NCBI GenBank assembly: GCA_943371705.1
Contig: CALRVV010000004.1
Span: 157,858-221,857 of the forward strand
DNA length: 64,000 bases
Direction of reading: 5' to 3'
Source: Chitinophaga pinensis
GTDB taxonomy: Bacteria > Bacteroidota > Bacteroidia > Chitinophagales > Chitinophagaceae
This document shows, in pieces, positions 32,012 to 42,540 of this stretch. The position numbers were made by a program, and so were the translations under genes. The notes beneath the pieces were generated by a model, which was not told where the DNA came from, ran no database searches, and saw only the letters and a program-made list of their open reading frames with translations. Each line of letters starts with the position of its first letter. Position 1 is the stretch's first letter.

Positions 32012-35000
32012 ATGATGAAGAAAATTTACGTGTTTATTTTTTTGATTTTAGGAAGTGTGGGGGTTTGGGGGCAACAGGTGATCGGCTCTTTTCCAACCAT
32101 GGATGGAGGGTTTGAAAGCCAGGTAGCCGGAAACCTTACAGGTACTACAATTTTACCTGGCGCTCAAAGAACAGACTGGACTGTACAAAGTACAACTGGT
32201 TCGAGGCTTATTACAACCACCGGCGGAAGATCCGGACCAAAATATGTAACATATGGTACTACAACTGCTACTGGAAGGCGTCTTCAAAGCCCTACTGCTG
32301 CGGATGCTGCTGTTGTAAATTTAACAGCATATACCATTCAATATTTTTATAAAACTGCCGGTGCAACAGGAGCTTCAAACGGACAGGCAGGAGCCTCACC
32401 AGATGGAACAAGTTTTCCAGGCACATATGTTGCTACAACTTTGGCCGGAACCAGTGGGGTCTGGACAAAATCTACTACAGCCGTTACTTCCGGAACTTCT
32501 GCAGCTAATCCAAAATATGGAGTTGGAGTAATACGATTTGGTAATATTTCAGGTGTGGACATTGACATAGATGATTTTGTGATGTACGCAGGTGCTGTAG
32601 ACAATGCCGCTCCAAACAGTGCCGGTACAGTTACGGTTAATAACCCAACCGGAACTACCCTGGATGTAAGCTGGCTTGCTGCCAGTGGTGGAGTAGATGG
32701 AGGAGGATATGTAGTGGTAAGATATGCCGTATTACCTGGTGCAACAGACGATCCTTTGCAAAACGGAATTTATGCAACAGGTAATTCCGTGCCTGGTGGA
32801 ATTTCCGGAACTGTTGTATATATTGGTACAGGTCTTGGTTTTACCGATGTTGGACTGGCTGGATCTACCACTTACTATTATAAAGTGTATACTGTTGATA
32901 AAGCATTTAATTATGCAGTTGAAAGTGAAGGCAATGGCACAACCACATCTGCAATTCCCGATATCGTTTTATCATCTCCCAACCCGGCTGTTCCGGCCGG
33001 AAATTTACCCCAGGGTACAAATAATAATGTGATATACCGTTTCGACCTGGCTGTAACAACAGCCGATGCTATATTAACCGGGTTAACCATAAGTACTTCA
33101 TTCACATATTTAACCGGCGACTTTACCAATTTTAAATGCTGGTATTCAAGCGATGCTGTTTTCAATCCCGGAACCGATGTATTGTTAGCAACCCACTTCC
33201 CCTTGATGCCTGGCACACAAACATTTCCACCTTTAACCAGCCAAACCATCACAAGCGGAACCACCGGCTATTATTTTATTACCGTAGACTTACCATGTAC
33301 TGCAGCACTTGGTAACACCATTACTGTTAACCCCTTAACTACCGCTGATATCAGTTTTGTAAGCGGCAATAAATCAGGAACTGCCTTTGCTGGTGGATTA
33401 CAAACCATTACTGCGGCAACCGTTTTTGATGTTACCGGTGCAGCTGCTTCTATAGGTAATACCCTGTCATCTGTAAGCTGGATTAGTCCAACAGGTTGTT
33501 ATGATGAAGTAATGATCGTAGCTGCTGCCGGTGCTACAAACAGCGGTACACCAACCGGCGACGGAACAGCGTATACCGCTGCGCTCAGTTATGGTGCCGG
33601 TACTGCATTAGGTAACGGATTTGTAGTGTATAAAGGCCCATCTTCTTCGCCGCAGGTTGTTAACACCCTGGTTAACGGAACAACATACTATTTTAAAATT
33701 TATACCCGTTTTGGAACTACCTGGAGTTCGGGTGTGGAGGTAAATGCAACTCCGGATTTTATTACCAATCCAACCGATTATTTCCGGTCGGTGGCCAACG
33801 GTAGCTGGGCAACACTGGCAACCTGGCAAAGTTCGGTTGATAGTGTAAGCTGGATAGCTGCCACTGTTGTACCCGGAGCCACTGCTGCACACGTAGTGAT
33901 ACAAAACCCGGATTCTGTTTGGTTAGATGCAAACAGAACAACTGCAAACCTGACCATCATGTCGGGGGCAATTATGAATGCACTTACCTTTACCATGACA
34001 GCAACCCTGCGGTTTAATTTACTGGGCACTGCTACTTATTACCAGGGTGGTACGGTTACAACAGTACCCGGTTTATTAGGTAATCAGGTTCTGGCAACTA
34101 CCAGTAACTATCGTTATAACGGAACACAGGCAGGTACTTCAGCAGCACTTCCGGAATACGGAAACCTGTTTTGGGAACCTACAGCCAGTGGGGCCGGTAC
34201 ATTTGTGAATAATAATGCATCAGCCCCATTCAATAATGGATTGGTGGTACGTGGAAATATGACCATCAATATACAGGGAGGCACCGTAAGAGAAATAAGG
34301 TTTGCTACCGGGTCGTCAATTTCCCGGATACATACGATTGATGGTAACCTGAATATCATCAGTGCTGTTTCAACAGTGGTTGTTCAAAACGGTAGTAATG
34401 CCGTTACCAGTATAGTAAACATAGGCGGTGATATAAATATCAGTGCAGGCATATTGCAGGGCACCAGTACAACTGCGGCTACAACCGGCAGTGGTATATT
34501 AAACTTAAGAGGTAACATAAATAATACCGGTGGTACCATACAAACCGGTAACAGTACAGCTGGTTTATTTAGCCTTAATTATGTTGGTATTGTGCCCCAA
34601 AACATAAACAGTACCGGAGGAACATATACTTTTACTGCCAATCAACGCGATTCCATAAACAATGCCGGCAATGGCGTTACATTGAATACGCCTATTACGC
34701 ATAATGGCACCATTAACTTTTTATCGGGTAATATCAACACCACCAATGTTAACCTGTTAATATTAGGTGCTACGGCTACGGTATTAAATGCATCCAATGC
34801 CAGTTTTGTAAACGGGCCGGTTTCTAAAATCGGTAATACCTTATTTACTTTCCCGGTTGGTAAAACAGATTGCGGCCCAGGCAATACGGTTAGCGGATAT
34901 GCACCTATTGCCATTTCGGCGCCGGCAACCGCTACCGACCAGTTTACGGCCGAATATGTGCACAGCAGCGGCCATGCATTAGGAACCATTACTGCCCTTG

Positions 35001-35848
35001 GCCTTGAAAAGGTTAGTGCCTGCGATTACTGGAACCTTAACCAGGTATCGGGCGCCAATACACTTAATGTGACCCTCAACTGGAATGCAGCGGTAAATAA
35101 TTGCACCACTGCATCGGCTTATGTTGATGATCTGCCTGCATTGGTGGTGGCACATTTTGACGGACTCAACTGGGATGCATTTGGAGCTCCGGGCACGGCC
35201 ACAGGAACCCCTGCAGCCGGTGATGTTACCTGGCCAAATGTGAGTACATTCAGTCCCTTTGCCATAGGCAGTATTAGTTTCAATAATCCTTTGCCCATCA
35301 CCATCAATTATTTTAATGGTACCAGAAGTAACGGAAACCATTTACTGAACTGGAAAGTTACCTGTGTAAGCACACCCAGTGCCACCATTGAAATGGAACG
35401 CAGTACCGATGGAAGAAACTACAACAGCATCTACAGCATTTTTGCAACTGCTGTTCGCTGCGAGCAGCCGTTTACCCATACAGATAACCAGCCGGCAAAA
35501 GGCATTAATTATTACCGCATTAAAATGACCGGTGCTGATGGCAAAATAACCTACAGCACGGTGGTTACTTTGATCAATGCCGTAAAAGGAATTGATGTGA
35601 TGAACATTGCGCCAAACCCGATCGTGAACGGCCGGTTTAATTTAAAGATAAGCACCGCAGAAAAAACGCAGATGGAACTGGTGATCACCGATATGCAGGG
35701 CAGGGTATTGCAAAAGCAGTCTGCCAGCATGATAGCCGGCTTTAACCAATTGCCGGTGAACGTAAGAAACCTGGCAGCCGGTACGTACCAGCTGTTTGGC
35801 AATACAACCGATGGAAGAACAAGGGTATTAAGGTTTGTGATTCAATAA
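32012..35848 (+). CDS. Large T9SS type A cargo with fibronectin type III-like domains
   Basis: Signal peptide; TLDVSW...TTYYYKVY and TTYYFKIY Fn3-like repeats; PLPITINY domain; CTD RFVIQ. Confidence 0.88.
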   Translation: MMKKIYVFIFLILGSVGVWGQQVIGSFPTMDGGFESQVAGNLTGTTILPGAQRTDWTVQSTTGSRLITTTGGRSGPKYVTYGTTTATGRRLQSPTAADAAVVNLTAYTIQYFYKTAGATGASNGQAGASPDGTSFPGTYVATTLAGTSGVWTKSTTAVTSGTSAANPKYGVGVIRFGNISGVDIDIDDFVMYAGAVDNAAPNSAGTVTVNNPTGTTLDVSWLAASGGVDGGGYVVVRYAVLPGATDDPLQNGIYATGNSVPGGISGTVVYIGTGLGFTDVGLAGSTTYYYKVYTVDKAFNYAVESEGNGTTTSAIPDIVLSSPNPAVPAGNLPQGTNNNVIYRFDLAVTTADAILTGLTISTSFTYLTGDFTNFKCWYSSDAVFNPGTDVLLATHFPLMPGTQTFPPLTSQTITSGTTGYYFITVDLPCTAALGNTITVNPLTTADISFVSGNKSGTAFAGGLQTITAATVFDVTGAAASIGNTLSSVSWISPTGCYDEVMIVAAAGATNSGTPTGDGTAYTAALSYGAGTALGNGFVVYKGPSSSPQVVNTLVNGTTYYFKIYTRFGTTWSSGVEVNATPDFITNPTDYFRSVANGSWATLATWQSSVDSVSWIAATVVPGATAAHVVIQNPDSVWLDANRTTANLTIMSGAIMNALTFTMTATLRFNLLGTATYYQGGTVTTVPGLLGNQVLATTSNYRYNGTQAGTSAALPEYGNLFWEPTASGAGTFVNNNASAPFNNGLVVRGNMTINIQGGTVREIRFATGSSISRIHTIDGNLNIISAVSTVVVQNGSNAVTSIVNIGGDINISAGILQGTSTTAATTGSGILNLRGNINNTGGTIQTGNSTAGLFSLNYVGIVPQNINSTGGTYTFTANQRDSINNAGNGVTLNTPITHNGTINFLSGNINTTNVNLLILGATATVLNASNASFVNGPVSKIGNTLFTFPVGKTDCGPGNTVSGYAPIAISAPATATDQFTAEYVHSSGHALGTITALGLEKVSACDYWNLNQVSGANTLNVTLNWNAAVNNCTTASAYVDDLPALVVAHFDGLNWDAFGAPGTATGTPAAGDVTWPNVSTFSPFAIGSISFNNPLPITINYFNGTRSNGNHLLNWKVTCVSTPSATIEMERSTDGRNYNSIYSIFATAVRCEQPFTHTDNQPAKGINYYRIKMTGADGKITYSTVVTLINAVKGIDVMNIAPNPIVNGRFNLKISTAEKTQMELVITDMQGRVLQKQSASMIAGFNQLPVNVRNLAAGTYQLFGNTTDGRTRVLRFVIQ

Positions 35849-35866
35849 TACTGCATGAAATAATAT

Positions 35867-35900
35867 AAAAAAAGTGCTGCCCGCGGGCAGCACTTTTTTT
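35867..35900. terminator. Bidirectional terminator
   Basis: AAAAAAAGTGCTGCCC-gc-GGGCAGCACTTTTTTT inverted repeat. Confidence 0.85.
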
Positions 35901-35929
35901 ATTGCGGTTATGTACAATTTGCAGCACCT

Positions 35930-36037
35930 TATACCGACCATACATAATAAATAGTCAGGCAGTTTTTATGTCGGCATAATACCATCTAATATTTCAACGC
36001 AGTCCGTTGGACTACTTATGAAATAAAGATGGGATTA
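35930..36037. repeat. 108-bp double-hairpin dispersed element, copy A
   Basis: Aligns with 42617-42724 (inverted) and 58130-58250; contains AGTCC-gtt-GGACT. Confidence 0.85.
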
Positions 36038-36397
36038 ACCAGCTATATATTTTTTGATAACGATAAAAGCTATGATCATCAATAAAAGCAGGGTGACTAT
36101 GGTGATATACAGCCAGGGCTGGTCTTTCAGTTTTCGTTTTTCTTTTTTTGGTTTCTTTTTTTCTGTTTGTTTTTTCAGTTCACTGTTCAGTTGCTGTACC
36201 AGCAGGGAAAGGTCTTTTTTATTTTTAAAATTTTCCAGTCCTTCTATGGCATCGTTCATAAACTCATCATCGGCCATCTGCTTTTCCACTTCGTGGGCTT
36301 CTTCGGCAGTCAGGTTCTTATTCAGATAGTCAAGCAGTTTATCCTGCTCAATATCTTTGTTTAAATTAGATAGTATGTCTTTTAAATTGTCACTCAT
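36035..36397 (-). CDS. Short single-pass membrane protein, putative anti-sigma factor
   Basis: LLDYL...EVEK...DAIEGL N-terminus, basic stretch, C-terminal TM helix; directly downstream of an ECF sigma gene. Confidence 0.65.
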   Translation of the reverse strand: MSDNLKDILSNLNKDIEQDKLLDYLNKNLTAEEAHEVEKQMADDEFMNDAIEGLENFKNKKDLSLLVQQLNSELKKQTEKKKPKKEKRKLKDQPWLYITIVTLLLLMIIAFIVIKKYIAG

Positions 36398-36480: not shown

Positions 36481-36515
36481 GCAATTGCTTATTGCCAATT
36501 GTCTATTGCTCATTG
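36481..36515. repeat. Heptamer tandem array, 5x NNNATTG
   Basis: GCAATTG CTTATTG CCAATTG TCTATTG CTCATTG, overlapping the sigma factor stop codon. Confidence 0.65.
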
Positions 36516-37078
36516 CCATTGCTCATTCGTTCCATGATTATTTTCAAATTACGTTTTCCATTTTGTATATGGCTTTTTACATGCATGATACTATAGCTGG
36601 TTTGCTCGGCAATTTCCTGGTAGCTTTTTTTCTCCAGGTAAAACAAAGTTACACATAGTTGCTGCTCTTTGTTGAGTTGCATCAGTGCCCCGGCCAGGTT
36701 ATCGAGTGTTTTATCTTTTTGAATATGCTGGCCGCTGCCGTCGGGTTCTGCCGGGGTACTCAGCGCCTGCTCATTGATCTCTGCATTAAACCTGCCTTTA
36801 TCACGCAATTGCATCAGGCAGTGATTTTTTGCGATCATGTATATCCAGCTTTTAAAATATTCCACTTTGTATTTATGCAGTTCATTAATGGCTTTCAGAA
36901 AAACCTGTTGAACGGCATCTTTTGATGCTTCTTCATTTTTCAGGTATTTCATGCAAACACCCAGCAGCAGCATGGTATAGCGTTCCAGTAAAATACCCAG
37001 CCACTCATTATCGTGGTCTGCATAAAACCGGTTCAGCAGTTCTGTATCGCTGGTATGCCTGTATTGACTGTTGTTCAA
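36503..37078 (-). CDS. ECF RNA polymerase sigma-70 factor
   Basis: DAVQQVFLK, FKSWIYMIAKNHCL (region 2); SYQEIAE...VKSHIQNGKRNL (region 4); TTG start. Confidence 0.92.
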   Translation of the reverse strand: MNNSQYRHTSDTELLNRFYADHDNEWLGILLERYTMLLLGVCMKYLKNEEASKDAVQQVFLKAINELHKYKVEYFKSWIYMIAKNHCLMQLRDKGRFNAEINEQALSTPAEPDGSGQHIQKDKTLDNLAGALMQLNKEQQLCVTLFYLEKKSYQEIAEQTSYSIMHVKSHIQNGKRNLKIIMERMSNGNEQ

Positions 37079-37112: not shown

Positions 37113-38315
37113 TTAGTTCACAAACTGACCGTTTTTTTTATTTTTTTCCTGGTTATTTTTCAGAACCAGGTATTCGAGCCAAAGGGCTTTATTGTAAGCG
37201 GTACAGTAAAAATAATAATTAAGGTAATTAAAGTGAAGCAAAACCTGTTTCAGTGGCGTTGGTTGTGCAAATGCGGCCCTGGCCTGAAAAAAAACAAACG
37301 ACTCCTGGCCGGTTTTTTCAAATGCGGCGATGGATTCGATATTGATATGAGGAACCCTGACCCCCAGCCTGATCAATGCTGTTCGAAGAATAATGCGGTC
37401 CATGATATGGGTTGCTTTGTCAAGTACACGGGTAGCATCTGTTATTAACTGTTGTTGATACACCTGCAGTTCCGGAATAGGAAATGCAGCCATCAGCCGG
37501 GTAACATGATAAATAAGTACAGCAGGTTTTACATAAAAGGGAGAAATATAAACCGGCTTTTTCATGTAATCCCTGTTTTTAAGCATTTGGGCCAGCAGCA
37601 AAATGGTGGCACTGTCTTGTTCAACCAGTGGCAGTTTTTTTTCAAAATTGAAGTACAGCAGATTGCAATGCACTGCAAAATCAAAATCGGGGTGCATTTT
37701 TTCGCCCAGGTAAGTGCTGTATGCAGGGATATCGCGGTATTTTTTTAAGGTGGCATTGATCCTTTTCTTTTTAAGGTTGCTTACCTGGATCATTCTTTCT
37801 TTCAAGGCCCTGTTGTCAGATTCATTGTTGTCTGAAGCCATCAGTATCATTACGCTGTCGTCTGCATCATCGCCCTGCGACAACATGCCGGTGAAGCGGT
37901 TAATGAACAATGAATGGGGCAGGATAGGGGCATTGGCCGGCCAGAAATTGTAATAGGGTTTGCCATTTAAGTTTCTGTATTTGGGATAAGCCAGGGCTGC
38001 ATCCTTACTGATCCTAATTGCGTTTGCTTTATCCTTTTCGTTCAGGTAAAGGGTAAGTTTATTTACCGTAAATGCTGTTATGGCTGTATAAAAAATATTA
38101 TTATCAGGCTGGTAATTGTACGGAAATCCGGCACATTTCCGGTAAGATGGAAAAGTGCCTTTGTAAAATTCGCCATCCTGCTTAACCTGCATGGCCTCAA
38201 TATCTGCAAGCAGGTTGCTTATCAATGCAGCATCGGTTTGGGCAAATACAAAACGGCCGTTAAAAAATAAAACAAAAAATATCAGGACCAGTCTTCTCAT
38301 AAAAGCTTTTTTCAT
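37113..38315 (-). CDS. Hypothetical exported protein with class II terpene cyclase-like DxDD motif
   Basis: ATGA overlap with upstream gene at 38312-38315; signal-like N-terminus ...FVFAQ; DDADDS, DFAVHCNLLYF, SPFY..P...YH..RL. Function inferred. Confidence 0.6.
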   Translation of the reverse strand: MKKAFMRRLVLIFFVLFFNGRFVFAQTDAALISNLLADIEAMQVKQDGEFYKGTFPSYRKCAGFPYNYQPDNNIFYTAITAFTVNKLTLYLNEKDKANAIRISKDAALAYPKYRNLNGKPYYNFWPANAPILPHSLFINRFTGMLSQGDDADDSVMILMASDNNESDNRALKERMIQVSNLKKKRINATLKKYRDIPAYSTYLGEKMHPDFDFAVHCNLLYFNFEKKLPLVEQDSATILLLAQMLKNRDYMKKPVYISPFYVKPAVLIYHVTRLMAAFPIPELQVYQQQLITDATRVLDKATHIMDRIILRTALIRLGVRVPHINIESIAAFEKTGQESFVFFQARAAFAQPTPLKQVLLHFNYLNYYFYCTAYNKALWLEYLVLKNNQEKNKKNGQFVN

Positions 38316-39298
38316 CCGGGTAATTTGTATGCATAGTAAAGCCACTTCAAAAAGTTAAGGGGTTTTTCCATATCCACGATCATCTCTTTTCTTTGCAATG
38401 GCCACCAGTTTATTTTTTTGCCTGCTTTTTTTTGTCTGCGTACAAACTGATCCAGCGCAACCACAGATCTTGCGTTGATGGTGTTCATCACAAAACAAAA
38501 TTCCTTTTTATTTTTTTCGGCATAGGGCAATGCCATGATCTTTTGATTTTGCAACTGAACCCTTTCTAAAAATGATCTGCGCAAGGCTGCATAATCAGCG
38601 CAGGTGTTCACCAGGGTGTATATATTGTCCCTTACATCTTTATACAGGTCAAAAATATCATTGCCCAGCTGGTATAAACTGCCAATTAAAAACAATACTT
38701 CTTTCATCTGTTCATCAGCTTCATCATCCAGGCATTGGTGATAAATAATAACCGAAACGGCGCCCTTCGTATAGGTGATGTGTTCCAGTTCGGGAACAGA
38801 TATGGCGGGGTTTGTTTGCCGGGCTGTTTCGATCTGTATGTTCAGCACATTTGTTGCGGCCAGCAGGTAGGCTTCTTTATGCGGAACATCGGCCAGTAAA
38901 AAACCCTGGATCTCTTTGGCCACTTTAGCCGAAAAGGTGGTTGCAGTAAAGTTTTCGGGGTCGTACGTGATGGCCCTGATGCTTTCAATGTTCAGCTTGT
39001 CTTCATCAAACAGGTCATCGCCCACCGGGGTTAAAATACCAAAAAGGGTGCATCTTTTCCTTTCGGCACCGGTAAGGGGCCTTCCCAGTAACCGGGTAAA
39101 GCTGCTGCATAAAAAAGAAGTGATGAAGAGGCCGTAATAATCCAGTATCTTTTTTCTCTGTTCATCCCTGAATTTTCCGCCGTATTTTTTTTCAAGGCCG
39201 TGCAGGTAAGGAACCAAAAAGGTTTTATTGTATTGCTTTTGTTTTTTTATTTCTTTATAAACGCTGCGGGATATGTTTATATACCTGAATAGCCTCAT
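38312..39298 (-). CDS. Class I isoprenoid synthase-fold protein
   Basis: GDDLFDE (DDxxD), TKG, YQLGNDIFDLYKD second metal-binding motif; all-helical character. Confidence 0.75.
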   Translation of the reverse strand: MRLFRYINISRSVYKEIKKQKQYNKTFLVPYLHGLEKKYGGKFRDEQRKKILDYYGLFITSFLCSSFTRLLGRPLTGAERKRCTLFGILTPVGDDLFDEDKLNIESIRAITYDPENFTATTFSAKVAKEIQGFLLADVPHKEAYLLAATNVLNIQIETARQTNPAISVPELEHITYTKGAVSVIIYHQCLDDEADEQMKEVLFLIGSLYQLGNDIFDLYKDVRDNIYTLVNTCADYAALRRSFLERVQLQNQKIMALPYAEKNKKEFCFVMNTINARSVVALDQFVRRQKKAGKKINWWPLQRKEMIVDMEKPLNFLKWLYYAYKLPG

Positions 39299-39372: not shown

Positions 39373-39807
39373 TCAGCCGCCATCAACCTTGTTCACATTA
39401 AGCTGCGACTGTTTTGCATTCACTTCATTTTTTTTTGCTTTATCAATGAACAGCATTTTTATTGCAATGATGATCATCACTATGGCAAATACTTTTTTTA
39501 AGGTTTCCTGTGAAATGGATAAAGCCATCTTACTGCCAAAAAAACTGCCTGCTAAAAAGCCAATGGCCAGCAGTCCCACAATTCTGAAATCAACATGGCC
39601 CTGCTTATAATATTGCATTACCCCTAAAATGCCAACAGGCAGCATGATCATGGCAAGGGATGTGCCCTGTGCCGTTTTTTGGCTGAAGCCGATAAAATAC
39701 ACCAATGCCGGTACTATGATGATGCCGCCACCCACGCCTACAAGGCCGCTGAGCATGCCGGCAGCAATTCCCACCATGATGATGATGAGTACAGTTTGTA
39801 TTTCCAT
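39373..39807 (-). CDS. TauE/SafE (TSUP) family small membrane protein
   Basis: AGMLSGLVGVGGGIIIVPAL, AQGTSLA; start at MEIQTV. Confidence 0.88.
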   Translation of the reverse strand: MEIQTVLIIIMVGIAAGMLSGLVGVGGGIIIVPALVYFIGFSQKTAQGTSLAMIMLPVGILGVMQYYKQGHVDFRIVGLLAIGFLAGSFFGSKMALSISQETLKKVFAIVMIIIAIKMLFIDKAKKNEVNAKQSQLNVNKVDGG

Positions 39808-39824
39808 TTTTTTGGTTTTAATGG

Positions 39825-40364
39825 TCATTTGGGAAAACTTGTTTTGTATAAAGCAATGGCTTCATCAATGATATTAAAAGCAGCTTCCGCATTTTGAAAT
39901 TCATCTATCTCTACAATTTTATTCTCCAGTACCTTATACTGCTCAAAATAATTGCGTAATACGGCAATAAAATGTTTGGGCAGTTCATCCATGGAATTTA
40001 TATAATTCACTTCGGGGTCATGCGATGCCACCGCAATTATTTTATCATCGGCCATACCGCTGTCGATCATCTGCATATTGCCGATCACGTTGGCCTCTAC
40101 GAGGCATAAAGGCTCAATGCTTTCGCTGCATATCACCAGTATATCCAACGGGTCGCCATCATGTCCCAGTGTTTGCGGAATGAAACCGTAATTGACCGGG
40201 TAATGAAAGGAAGAATAAATGATGCGGTCTAATTTCAATAACCCGGTTTTTTTATCAACCTCGTACTTCGTACGTGAACCTTTGGGTATTTCAATGAGGC
40301 CGTTAACTACCTGGGGGGCTTTATCGCCGAAGTGGGCACCATGCCAGGGATGAAGTGTGTGCAT
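39825..40364 (-). CDS. ppa: Inorganic pyrophosphatase (family I)
   Basis: EIPKGSRTKYE, YPVNYGFIPQT, DGDPLD, DDKIIAV. Confidence 0.95.
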   Translation of the reverse strand: MHTLHPWHGAHFGDKAPQVVNGLIEIPKGSRTKYEVDKKTGLLKLDRIIYSSFHYPVNYGFIPQTLGHDGDPLDILVICSESIEPLCLVEANVIGNMQMIDSGMADDKIIAVASHDPEVNYINSMDELPKHFIAVLRNYFEQYKVLENKIVEIDEFQNAEAAFNIIDEAIALYKTSFPK

Positions 40365-41264: not shown

Positions 41265-41298
41265 AAAAAAGCATCCCGGTTTTTCCGGGATGCTTTTT
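41265..41298. terminator. Terminator
   Basis: AAAAAAGCATCCCGG-ttttt-CCGGGATGCTTTTT. Confidence 0.8.
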
Positions 41299-41314: not shown

Positions 41315-41872
41315 TTATTTTTTTTCCATTGCTTTTTTAAGCGAATCCATTGCCTGTATTCCTTTGTCCATCATCATTTTCAGCGAGTCGGCGCTCATAT
41401 TTTTGAATTTTTCCATTTCTTCTTTCATATTACCCATCTGCTCATCATTCATTTCCTCCTTCATTTTTTCAGCACCCATGTTCATCATGGTACCCATATC
41501 CATGGCAACTTTCCAAGAGCCGCCTTCTTTTTTCAGTACAAAATTGATCGACTCGCCGGTTTTGATCTCTTTCACACTTACGGTTGCTTTGTCTCCCTCA
41601 ATTTTGGCTTCTCCCATCTCCATCTTGGTTTTGTCAAACTGTTCACTGGTTTTGTCTTCCATGGTATTGTCCTGCATTTTCATTCCCATTTCCATCAGGT
41701 CAAGCATTGATTTACTTTCGGCTGTGGCCAGCTTACGGGCGGCTGCAATATCTTTTTTGGCCATGGCATCAAAAAAACTGGTTAGTACAGCTTTGGGATC
41801 GCCGGCTCCGCTGTTGCAGCTGCCGAGGTAAAGGGTAGAAACTGCCAATAGAAGGGCTAATAATTTTTTCAT
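41315..41872 (-). CDS. DUF4878 lipoprotein
   Basis: Lipobox LGSC; PKAVLTSFFDAM; KIEGDKATV; LKKEGGSWKV. Confidence 0.8.
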   Translation of the reverse strand: MKKLLALLLAVSTLYLGSCNSGAGDPKAVLTSFFDAMAKKDIAAARKLATAESKSMLDLMEMGMKMQDNTMEDKTSEQFDKTKMEMGEAKIEGDKATVSVKEIKTGESINFVLKKEGGSWKVAMDMGTMMNMGAEKMKEEMNDEQMGNMKEEMEKFKNMSADSLKMMMDKGIQAMDSLKKAMEKK

Positions 41873-41943: not shown

Positions 41944-42540
41944 TCAGTTTTCAGTATTTTTTTTCTTTTGCATCGAGTCCAGTGCCTGTACCCCTTTCCG
42001 GATCAGCATTTTAAGGGTGTCGGGATCTATTTTCTGCAGTTTTTCAAGCCCGTCCTTTAAATCTCCTTTACGGGCACCCATATTTCCCTTCATGCTGTTG
42101 AACATTTGATTTCCGGGTTTGGAGAGGGCTATTTTCCAGGCGTTGTCTTCTTTTACCAGTTCAAATTTTTGCTTGCTCATCTTTTCCCCGTTTTGGGCGG
42201 CCGTATCCTTTATGGTGATCTCGGCTTCTACGGTGGCGTGGTCGCCATCGATGGTTTCGTTTTTTATATCAAACTCAATATGTTTCGCATTTTCTTTTAA
42301 TTCCTCGGTGAGCCTGGTCTTTATTTTATTTATGCCTTCGGGGTCAATGCCTGCCATGAATTTTTCTGCAGCTTCCAGCATGGCCACATCCGATTTGGTC
42401 ACGAATTTTTTCATTTCTTCAATATTGCCCTTCTTCATGGCAGTAAACATATCTTCCAGTACAACAGCAGGCGGATTGGCCGGTTGTTTGCAGGCAGCAA
42501 GGCAAAAGAGTACACATAAAGCGGCAATTGATCTTTTCAT
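41944..42540 (-). CDS. DUF4878 lipoprotein, paralog
   Basis: Lipobox LAAC; ETIDGDHATV; LVKEDNAWKI; C-terminus similar to the 41315 gene (DKGIQAMDSL / RKGVQALDSM). Confidence 0.8.
   Translation of the reverse strand: MKRSIAALCVLFCLAACKQPANPPAVVLEDMFTAMKKGNIEEMKKFVTKSDVAMLEAAEKFMAGIDPEGINKIKTRLTEELKENAKHIEFDIKNETIDGDHATVEAEITIKDTAAQNGEKMSKQKFELVKEDNAWKIALSKPGNQMFNSMKGNMGARKGDLKDGLEKLQKIDPDTLKMLIRKGVQALDSMQKKKNTEN

Follow-up and report, generated by a model that had tools for sequence, protein, structure and literature searches.

An overlapping gene pair of Chitinophagaceae that encodes a class I isoprenoid synthase-fold protein and a predicted exported class II terpene cyclase β domain

An acidic residue and a shielded pocket are all that a class II terpene cyclase needs, and its action in the periplasm is therefore possible in principle. 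To our knowledge, the terpene cyclases characterised so far all act in the cytoplasm or at the cytoplasmic face of the membrane, and no terpene cyclase working in the periplasm was found described in the literature searched. In the pathway to the sesquarterpenes of Bacillus, the class IB "large" terpene synthase YtpB strips a long prenyl diphosphate of its diphosphate, and the class II enzyme SqhC then protonates the hydrocarbon so formed at its free end. The drimenol synthase AsDMS of Aquimarina spongiae (HAD-TCβ; PDB 9MHS, 9M7D-F) catalyses a Mg2+-independent cyclisation and holds the phosphate with R368, R370, R415, and Y416 (PMC12232559). Its general acid is D333 (PMC12232559, PMC12365925), the Y427F variant is inactive (PMC12365925), and activity is abolished by the replacement of any of D331, D333, and Y427 (PMC12365925, PMC9128629). 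In merosterolic acid synthase, MstE (PDB 6SBB), which uses a DxD motif (PMC12324236), a single β domain shields the carbocation without a γ domain (PMC12232559, PMC12324236).

The two genes described here, A and B, overlap on the minus strand of DNA from a freshwater Chitinophagaceae bacterium. They had been noticed earlier in the letters of the window, i.e., the whole stretch of 64,000 nucleotides that was analysed, and the pair described in that original prediction is confirmed. Gene A (38312–39298, minus strand) is an open reading frame of 328 residues encoding a class I isoprenoid synthase-fold protein of an uncharacterised family, whereas gene B (37113–38315, minus strand) encodes, from the ATG at 38315, a 400-residue precursor of a predicted exported class II terpene cyclase β domain. 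The stop codon of A and the start codon of B share the tetranucleotide ATGA (38312–38315, minus strand; tcat on the plus strand), an arrangement which suggests that translation of the two genes may be coupled. The overlap can be read from the sequence as was claimed, provided that B starts at Met1; with a start at Met6, a gap of 11 nt would take its place. The mechanically called reading frame of B opens at a GTG (38345) ahead of the ATG at 38315, and the database gene call for a protein identical to B has 395 residues, and thus starts at Met6. Met1 is favoured as the start of B since most of its homologues begin with MKK. The motifs listed in the original prediction were all located, with DDLFD and YQLGNDIFDLYKD at residues 94–98 and 209–221 of A, and with DDADDS, DFAVHCNLLYF, and SPFY at residues 149–154, 212–222, and 258–261 of B.

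Signal peptide is absent from A, which is a cytoplasmic protein. Its AF2 model is all-helical (pLDDT 93.6), and all 50 Foldseek matches listed for it are isoprenoid synthases (probability 0.93–1.00, E of 2e-3 and weaker), led by CrtM, class IB terpene synthases, Sat1646, and polyprenyl synthases, with TM-scores of up to 0.60. The model and its matches thus give the α fold anticipated when A was called class I isoprenoid synthase-like. The first Asp-rich motif, D94-D95-L-F-D98 (DDxxD), lies at 39005–39019 (minus strand), and the second motif, of a metal-binding type, has its N-D-x-x-D-x-x-x-D core, N213-D214-I-F-D217-L-Y-K220-D221, at 38636–38662 (minus strand). As read from the sequence, A would thus carry the two motifs expected in the class I isoprenoid synthase superfamily, and no variation at D94, D95, D98, N213, D214, D217, or D221 occurs among 41 sequences, down to 23% identity, drawn from the two subfamilies that make up the A family, the second of which was found without B.

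At the level of sequence, the sole Pfam match of A is PF00348 (polyprenyl_synt), with 15.4 bits against a cut-off of 27 bits; 11 of the 24 family members match this model, with the best E being 6.7e-5, and all of them fall below the Pfam cut-off. No match was found in NCBIfam. Searches of the PDB sequences with the single protein and with the close-family profile returned just a designed repeat protein, and those with wider profiles nothing significant (best, an isoprenyl diphosphate synthase, E of 0.16–0.53), so that no curated family or solved structure was matched to A by sequence in Pfam, NCBIfam, or the PDB. With its class I isoprenoid synthase fold, A may be a terpene synthase, a chain-elongating enzyme, or a head-to-head synthase, and it is probably Mg2+-dependent.

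The AF2 model of B (pLDDT 84.9, pTM 0.86) has 12 main helices arranged in an α/α barrel. The ten top Foldseek matches are all chains of AsDMS, including 9M7F and 9MHS (E of 5e-9 to 4e-8, TM-scores of 0.54–0.57), the best of them being to its β domain (E of 5e-9, TM-score of 0.56), and they are followed by a 345-residue squalene-hopene cyclase entry and by SsDMS. For barrels unrelated to terpenes (GH88-like, GH8, and GH76 structures, and the thioester domains of complement), E is no better than 4e-3; a glycoside hydrolase-type barrel, the adverse outcome envisaged for B in the original prediction, ranks far behind AsDMS, with E of 4e-3 to 0.1 and TM-scores not exceeding 0.46. A profile of the wide B family also matches, among the PDB sequences, those of AsDMS (E of 6e-7) and of fungal AstC (E of 4e-3), with the alignment to AsDMS spanning profile positions 132–307 of 374. 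AsDMS was reached only by this wide profile, since the single protein and the close-family profile matched nothing among the PDB sequences, and scans of B against Pfam and NCBIfam gave nothing above cut-off. By this profile comparison, B and the cyclase domains of AsDMS and AstC, both of them HAD-fused drimenol synthases, are homologues. All 150 relatives listed are single-domain proteins, the full-length ones having about 345–480 residues, and a Pfam HAD match was found in none of 125 family members; B is therefore a stand-alone relative and not a HAD-TCβ enzyme, in agreement with its earlier reading as a stand-alone β-domain cyclase. The family, which at 50% identity falls into 449 clusters or more, was not found described in our literature searches.

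The predicted catalytic residues of B can be placed by the same alignment. The putative general-acid motif D149-D150-A-D152-D153 (37857–37871, minus strand; family consensus LPDDxDDT) is in register with that of AsDMS, as the family motif PDDxDDT falls on F-P-D-D-L-D-T-T, and D150 and D152 align with D321 and D323 in the numbering of 9MHS, equivalent to D331 and D333 of the full-length enzyme. Y261 (37533–37535, minus strand), the tyrosine of the SPFY motif and a candidate hydrogen-bond partner of the general acid, appears to correspond to Y417 of 9MHS, i.e., to the catalytic Tyr427 in full-length numbering, and D212 and N218, which delimit the DFAVHCN segment (37662–37682, minus strand) conserved in both the B family and AsDMS, align with D372 and N378. 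Among 135 relatives with 25–52% identity to the protein from the window, D150, D152, and Y261 are each conserved in 99%, N218 in 100%, and D212 in 96%, and the catalytic residues are as well conserved in the members that lack a signal peptide as in those that have one. The residues of AsDMS that hold the phosphate are another matter: R368, R370, R415, and Y416 align with M207, D210, V255, and F260 of B, and the family consensus at these positions is Met, Asp or Glu, variable, and Tyr or His, never basic. The absence of their conservation argues against binding of FPP by B in the manner of AsDMS, although not against cyclase chemistry.

The N-terminus of B, MKKAFMRRLVLIFFVLFFNGRFVFA|QTD, is hydrophobic and was judged by rules on its n/h/c layout. 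Residues 1–25 (38241–38315, minus strand) form a predicted Sec signal peptide, in which K2, K3, R7, and R8 precede a core of L9–F18, with Val at position –3, Ala at –1, and Q26 at +1 of the predicted cleavage site VFA/Q26. By these rules, the segment has the typical features of a Sec/SPase I substrate (a positively charged n-region, a hydrophobic core within 7–15 residues, and positions –3 and –1 occupied by small residues, with the Cys of a lipobox absent), and the signal-like character noticed earlier extends to the clade as a whole. In the close family, a small residue and then Gln follow the hydrophobic core in 53 of 57 members; in the wide family, 82 of 135 members have an N-terminus resembling a signal peptide, with Lys or Arg ahead of the core in 80 of these 82 and a lipobox in one. 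The letters of the signal peptide vary across the clade, with the n/h/c character kept. The 46 relatives (of 135) without a signal peptide form a single clade and begin exactly at helix 1, and localisation would therefore be a stable, selected trait. On these grounds, B is predicted to be exported.

Adjacency of the two genes is widely maintained. Among about 75 usable genome loci anchored on B, 66, and 4 more that are truncated, have A immediately upstream in the same orientation (~93%), and of 65 metagenome loci anchored on A, 60 have B as the next gene downstream; the rare co-occurrence that the original prediction had set against itself is thus replaced by adjacency of about 92–93% in both directions. 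By crude calling of reading frames, the distance from stop to start falls between –49 and +46 nt in most related loci. The pair is conserved in many Chitinophagaceae, and its cultured carriers include Arachidicoccus sp. BS20 (36.5% and 35.6% identity), Parafilimonas terrae DSM 28286, Limnovirga soli KCS-6, Ilyomonas limi, and Panacibacter ginsenosidivorans. Whether they carry a signal peptide or not, relatives that share no more than about 35% identity with B usually stand alone among unrelated genes, with no A within 6–7 kb. Neither A nor B strictly needs the other as its neighbour.

No other gene, carbohydrate-active genes included, was found conserved beside the pair across related loci. 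In the window, B is followed on the same strand by genes for an ECF sigma factor (36503–37078, minus strand) and for a small single-pass membrane protein, presumably the anti-sigma of the ECF pair (36035–36397, minus strand), as had been stated, whereas ppa (39825–40364), which had been placed just upstream of A, is separated from it by a half-size TauE-family membrane gene (39373–39828). The ECF sigma/anti-sigma pair, TauE, ppa, and CrcB were rejected as parts of the system, as they accompany the pair in the 10–13 closest loci only. Also set aside were prfB, a housekeeping neighbour found beside B in 14 loci, and a divergent A-like gene as a member of an informative cluster, its neighbours being TatC, QueA, PdxJ, and similar genes. 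Scans for promoters and terminators gave counts near those of shuffled sequence; a Bacteroidota-type –7 motif was not found just upstream of A in the promoter scan, and strong terminators on the minus strand occur only at the flanks of the whole eight-gene co-directional block. Runs labelled as RNA-Seq, most of which may contain DNA, yielded short contigs over parts of A and B, two of them across the junction.

We take the A–B pair to be a real two-gene terpenoid module. For its substrate, product, and order of reactions, we infer that A and B belong to one pathway, in which A most likely acts before B, the substrate of B carries no diphosphate, and the product is a cyclic terpenoid lipid. In the cytoplasm, A would bind a prenyl diphosphate through its DDxxD motif and the N213/D217/D221 triad and would remove or transfer the diphosphate, yielding a lipid-soluble isoprenoid lodged in the membrane. 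The substrates of class I enzymes are cytoplasmic diphosphates, so that a partner in the periplasm needs an intermediate that crosses the membrane or sits in it, and such an intermediate between A and B is assumed here. Since B has a predicted, presumably cleavable, Sec signal peptide, we propose that it acts at the periplasmic side of the inner membrane, where D152, helped by D150 and Y261, may protonate the terminal C=C bond of the isoprenoid and so start ring closure. Class II chemistry involves no metal, nucleotide, or diphosphate, and can therefore run outside the cytoplasm; once cyclised at its free end from the periplasmic face, the isoprenoid would become a cyclic terpenoid lipid in the envelope. 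The combination of features suggests a terpenoid lipid cyclised outside the cytoplasm, and we hold with moderate confidence the explanation as a whole, namely a self-contained two-gene terpenoid module with an exported cyclase, in which A acts first.

It is possible, if rather doubtful, that the case is a general one, in which a large family of Sec-exported monodomain class II enzymes in Bacteroidota performs terpene cyclisation in the periplasm, fed here by a new class I family, and makes envelope lipids. If true, this would be, as far as we know, the first terpene cyclase shown to act outside the cytoplasm, together with a new class of bacterial envelope lipids, and such cyclic terpenoid lipids might stand in for hopanoids or sterols. 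Both families are without a Pfam or NCBIfam model, and genome mining by curated terpene synthase models misses them. As a stand-alone relative of the cyclase domain that is fused to HAD in drimenol synthases, B bears on the origins of both the fusion and the monodomain cyclases, and a small module of two genes, present in cultured strains too, offers a direct test of periplasmic cyclisation.

Other readings of the pair differ in which part of this scheme they give up. The hand-over from A to B would disappear if B by itself acted on one of the isoprenoids common in envelopes (for example squalene, a carotenoid, the menaquinone-7 tail, or undecaprenyl as its phosphate or diphosphate), with A as a separate accessory, e.g., a chain-length-specific prenyl diphosphate synthase linked to B for supply or regulation. 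The distant relatives of B, most of them alone amid unrelated genes, would be explained in this way; equal conservation of the catalytic residues with or without a signal peptide fits a membrane substrate reachable from either face, and the sole sequence-level signal of A is that of the polyprenyl synthases. A precedent exists in monodomain MstE, whose substrate is a quinone-like precursor cyclised at its prenyl tail (PMC12232559, PMC12324236). However, pairing on the same strand, with an ATGA overlap or a few nucleotides between the genes, is kept down to 36% identity and is more typical of consecutive steps or of a complex, and A has neither the RRG found in trans-prenyltransferases just after their first Asp-rich motif nor an Asp at the opening of the second motif, which begins with Asn. 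We regard such independence of B as unlikely.

Less likely still is an entirely cytoplasmic pathway, in which the N-terminus of B would be no working export signal, or just a tether for a domain facing the cytoplasm, and B would cyclise FPP or GGPP before A ionises the cyclic diphosphate, in the manner of copalyl diphosphate synthase and kaurene synthase. Pairs of class II and class I genes whose products act in that order are usual in bacterial diterpenoid clusters, the highest TM-score to A belongs to the class I pimarane-type diterpene synthase Sat1646, one clade of the B family is entirely without a signal peptide, and that of B was called by rules, not by a trained predictor. Against this stand the four Lys/Arg residues, the 10-residue hydrophobic core, and the V-x-A/Q site, which by the positive-inside rule would put the domain outside the cytoplasm, the recurrence of the same N-terminal layout in unrelated letters in 82 of 135 relatives, and the absence from B of the phosphate-binding residues of AsDMS. 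We find it very improbable that B is not a cyclase at all and is instead an exported α/α-barrel glycoside hydrolase, lyase, or lipid-binding protein sharing ancestry with terpene cyclase β domains; its pairing with A would in that case mean something else. Exported hydrolases of this fold with Asp/Glu catalysis are common in Bacteroidota, and GH88-like, GH8, and GH76 structures do figure in the Foldseek list, but with E and TM-scores far inferior to those of AsDMS; moreover, the sequence-level matches of B are solely class II cyclases, on which the catalytic Asp-x-Asp and Tyr fall in register, nothing conserved in the neighbourhood is carbohydrate-active, and the conserved partner, A, has an isoprenoid synthase fold.

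Compared with the described systems, B is closest to AsDMS, likewise from a member of Bacteroidota, with which it shares the β-domain fold as well as the DxD(D/T)(T/S) motif, the catalytic Tyr, and the D...N segment, all aligned in register; sequence homology to the profile of the B family extends to both AsDMS and AstC. Unlike these two enzymes, B has no HAD phosphatase domain but a predicted Sec signal peptide instead, and the identity is just 15–17%; relative to AsDMS, the phosphate-holding Arg, Arg, Arg, and Tyr are replaced by Met, Asp, Val, and Phe, and B is coupled to a separate gene of the class I fold. MstE and B are both stand-alone class II cyclases of about 350 residues consisting of a β domain only, although the profile of the B family did not match the MstE sequence even at E of 10, and MstE is absent among the 50 Foldseek matches listed for B. 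Neither an export signal nor a partner of class I fold is known to us for MstE.

Protein A shares the α fold and two Asp-rich motifs with the trans-prenyl diphosphate synthases (PF00348) and with the squalene/phytoene synthases, represented by CrtM, its top Foldseek match (E of 2e-3), and its G-x-x-x-Q-L-x-N-D-x-x-D-x-x-x-D stretch resembles by sequence the second motif of both families. It differs from them in having no RRG after the first motif, no Arg before it (compare CrtM), and Asn at the start of the second motif. The bacterial class II/class I diterpene pairs are also encoded by adjacent genes, and Sat1646 (7E4N) is the best match of A by TM-score, 0.60; their class II members are βγ proteins of the cytoplasm, which use GGPP in the first step, whereas B has only a β domain, is predicted to be exported, and is encoded by the second gene. 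The order of reactions in the Bacillus sesquarterpene pathway, from YtpB to SqhC, has the same logic as that proposed for A and B. In structure, A is matched comparatively well by two class IB synthases, 5YO8 and 6LOO (TM-scores of 0.54–0.55), it presumably is without the class IB motifs, and SqhC is a two-domain βγ enzyme that is not exported, in contrast to the predicted exported, β-only B.

Genes A (38312–39298, minus strand, 328 aa) and B (37113–38315, minus strand, 400 aa counted from the ATG at 38315) meet at 38312–38315, where the plus strand reads tcat, so that the stop codon of A and the start codon of B together form ATGA; the overlap described in the original prediction is thus present, with Met1 as the start of B. 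For the same B protein, one database record lists a gene of 395 aa, which places the start at Met6 and would leave an 11-nt gap after A in place of the overlap. Met1 is favored because most homologs begin with MKK. All motifs quoted originally are found, namely DDLFD (residues 94–98) and YQLGNDIFDLYKD (residues 209–221) in A, as well as DDADDS (149–154), DFAVHCNLLYF (212–222), and SPFY (258–261) in B. The window originates from a lake-water metagenome, and the genomes nearest to it belong to Ferruginibacter-type Chitinophagaceae.

No match to B was found in Pfam, in NCBIfam, or by direct search of PDB sequences. Its AlphaFold2 model, built from 57 homologs, is confident (pLDDT 84.9, pTM 0.86) and contains 12 main helices. 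The top ten Foldseek matches in the PDB are all chains of AsDMS, the HAD-fused drimenol synthase of Aquimarina spongiae (E 5e-9 to 4e-8, TM 0.54–0.57); next come an entry for a squalene-hopene cyclase of 345 residues and then the drimenyl diphosphate synthase of Streptomyces. This ranking, with AsDMS first, bears out the class II cyclase β-domain fold put forward for B. When 1.84 billion cluster representatives were searched exhaustively with a profile, 449 relatives reached E ≤1e-3; the best 150 of them are all single-domain, the full-length ones comprising ~345–480 aa. A profile made from 125 relatives, 25–52% identical to B, matched only AsDMS (E 6.1e-7) and the fungal AstC (E 3.9e-3) among PDB sequences, while none of these 125 proteins rose above noise in Pfam. 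These results predict that B consists of a class II terpene cyclase β domain standing alone, evolutionarily closest to the β domain in AsDMS and AstC.

In the profile alignment, the family motif P-D-D-x-D-D-T sits on F-P-D-D-L-D-T-T of AsDMS, and a nearly invariant tyrosine falls on Y417 (9MHS numbering). The general acid of AsDMS is D323 in 9MHS, equivalent to D333 of the full-length enzyme, in which D331 and Y427 are also essential, with Y427 hydrogen-bonded to D333 (PMC12232559, PMC12365925, PMC9128629). The aligned counterparts of D333, D331, and Y427 in B are D152, D150, and Y261, each 99% conserved among 135 representatives, and N218 is conserved in 100% of them. Since Y261 and N218 are conserved and aligned with AsDMS, the DFAVHCN and SPFY motifs singled out originally are real family signatures common to the B family and AsDMS. 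In turn, the phosphate-holding R368, R370, R415, and Y416 of AsDMS are replaced in B by M207, D210, V255, and F260, and the residues at these positions are basic nowhere in the family.

The N terminus of B (MKKAFMRR, LVLIFFVLFF, and NGRFVFA, then QTD) carries four positive charges and a 10-residue hydrophobic core, with Val at −3, Ala at −1, then Gln, and contains no Cys. Substrates of signal peptidase I in Bacteroidota typically have Gln at +1. Among the 57 close homologs the N-terminal sequences vary and the layout is kept, a small residue and then Gln following the core in 53. The signal-like N terminus noted for B recurs in 82 of the 135 wide-family representatives, with Lys or Arg ahead of the core in 80 of the 82, a small residue followed by Gln in 62, and a lipobox-like motif in only one. 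The extension is absent from 46 representatives; in five such relatives the stop-to-stop frame opens 2–22 codons (6–66 nt) before the start, leaving no space for a signal peptide in four. Catalytic residues are equally conserved in both groups. As the extension-less representatives constitute essentially one clade of 47 in a neighbor-joining tree, the predicted localization is a stable, clade-level trait. Export of B is, on these features, a strong prediction.

The model of A is very confident (pLDDT 93.6) and all-helical, and the 50 Foldseek matches listed are isoprenoid synthases throughout, none of them close. They include CrtM (E 2e-3), the class IB β-prene synthases 5YO8 and 6LOO (TM 0.54–0.55), the pimarane-type diterpene synthase Sat1646 (TM 0.60), and many polyprenyl synthases. 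The only sequence signal is a sub-threshold match to polyprenyl_synt (15.4 bits for the window protein against a cut-off of 27 bits), seen in 11 of 24 family members and reaching E 6.7e-5 at most; a wider profile gave nothing significant among PDB sequences. A second subfamily, some members of which NCBI names 'class 1 isoprenoid biosynthesis enzyme', was reached via a divergent copy (24% identity) adjoining B in one related locus. Residues E79, D94, D95, D98, Q155, Q161, K178, Q210, N213, D214, D217, D221, R303, and D309 are invariant in 41 sequences from both subfamilies, and this set includes the DDxxD motif and an N/D/D triad at i, i+4, and i+8. The class I-like character suggested for A is thereby upheld: A represents a new family, and its model shows the fold of class I isoprenoid synthases. 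The fold and homology assignments are highly probable. Three members of the second subfamily (P0498, P0501, and P0502) carry an additional KTSC domain (PF13619, best E 4e-18).

In 79 B-anchored Chitinophagaceae genome loci, A lies directly upstream of B on the same strand in 66, is lost to a contig end in four more, and is missing beside B in about five. Conversely, among 65 A-anchored metagenome loci whose contigs extend 300 nt or more past A, B directly follows A in 60. The two genes thus co-occur regularly, and the pair is a conserved unit. The cultured Arachidicoccus sp. BS20 likewise carries the pair in its complete genome (CP015971.1), where A and B share 36.5% and 35.6% identity with their window counterparts, are 24 nt apart, and keep all motifs and a signal peptide. 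At greater divergence the linkage weakens, and no B was found near two proteins from the second A subfamily. These data suggest that in one large Chitinophagaceae clade B is translationally coupled to the unannotated class I-fold A.

No other gene family occurs in more than 14 of the 79 loci. The one reaching 14 is prfB (peptide chain release factor 2), which adjoins B in the A-less L017, L035, and L068 and an A-like gene in the B-less L090; this neighborhood may be an ancestral insertion site with one partner lost. On two metagenome contigs (L116, 4994–6947, and L150, 4985–6037), an A 63–71% identical to that of the window has no B after it, and 1.9 kb downstream of A in L116 lack an ORF of at least 110 aa; gene loss or misassembly could be the cause. 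Just downstream of the Arachidicoccus sp. BS20 pair, on the opposite strand, lie genes for chorismate synthase, EPSP synthase, DHQ synthase, and DAHP synthase/chorismate mutase (L172, 11437–17212). Other loci have no such arrangement and it is probably coincidental, yet it would be of interest if the substrate were a quinone or aromatic meroterpenoid.

In the window, B is followed on the minus strand by an ECF sigma factor (36503–37078) and a 120-aa single-pass membrane protein (36035–36397), and A is preceded by a half-size TauE-family gene (39373–39828), ppa (39825–40364), and then crcB, all on the same strand. The sigma/anti-sigma pair and ppa pointed out originally are indeed present here, but together with TauE and crcB they accompany A–B only in the 10–13 closest loci and are ruled out as parts of the module. 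The 151-aa TauE/SafE protein, whose gene start shares 4 nt with the ppa stop, spans half of the Pfam model (positions 1–113 of 237) and may work as a dimer.

Strong minus-strand terminators were detected only at 41298–41266 and 35902–35865, and promoter and terminator scans do not delimit the transcription unit. Both hairpins are long, perfect, and GC-rich (14 and 17 pairs, respectively), with T/A runs on both sides, and look like bidirectional terminators. They enclose an eight-gene co-directional minus-strand block (146-aa ORF, crcB, ppa, TauE, A, B, sigma factor, anti-sigma-like gene). Short contigs from runs labeled RNA-Seq overlap parts of A and B, and two of them (38240–38447 and 38197–38423) cross the junction, most of these libraries possibly containing DNA; one clean contig within B comes from a true metatranscriptome. 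Just ahead of the 35865–35902 hairpin ends a plus-strand ORF (32012–35848) for a Thr/Gly/Ala-rich, 1278-aa protein. It starts with a signal-like segment and ends with a type IX secretion sorting domain (Por_Secre_tail, E 3e-6), and is probably a large protein of the cell surface. Beyond the other hairpin, two adjoining minus-strand genes (41315–41872, without a Pfam match, and 41944–42540, matching DUF4878) encode small proteins that look like paralogs, with lipoprotein-like N termini (Cys after a hydrophobic segment) and Met/Lys/Glu-rich C-terminal tails.

The most likely mode of action is that A, in the cytoplasm, would turn a prenyl diphosphate into a diphosphate-free, lipid-soluble isoprenoid residing in the inner membrane, and that D152 of mature B, on the periplasmic side, would protonate its terminal double bond to close one or more rings. 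This overall picture is moderately probable; the order of steps, A before B, is proposed tentatively, its chances falling just short of even. That order fits with protonation chemistry being cofactor-free (the homologous AsDMS domain is a proven Mg2+-independent class II cyclase), with the loss of the phosphate-binding residues, and with the same active-site residues in family members predicted on either side of the membrane.

An unlikely alternative is that B alone acts on a common envelope isoprenoid, A only supplying or tuning the precursor; no A lies within 6–7 kb of eight B relatives whose identity is at most ~35%, some with a signal peptide and some lacking one, and the pair itself is conserved in Chitinophagaceae. 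Less probable still is a non-exporting N terminus, in which case the pair would form a conventional pathway in the cytoplasm, class II step first and class I step second: the signal peptide was judged by sequence features (charge, core, −3/−1), and its layout recurs widely. That B is a barrel protein other than a cyclase is very improbable, as glycoside hydrolases, like complement thioester domains and transcobalamin, appear in the Foldseek ranking only at E ≥4e-3 and TM ≤0.46.

The original reading of a class I-like enzyme paired with an exported class II-like one is supported and the finding real. The B family comprises unannotated class II cyclases of a single domain, most of which are predicted to be exported; the literature found covers AsDMS, AstC, and the monodomain MstE, and describes no stand-alone family that is exported or occurs in Chitinophagaceae. 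The A–B chemistry is open to direct study in cultured strains. The closest functional analogy to the proposed route is sesquarterpene formation in Bacillus, where the class II cyclase SqhC takes over after the class IB synthase YtpB.
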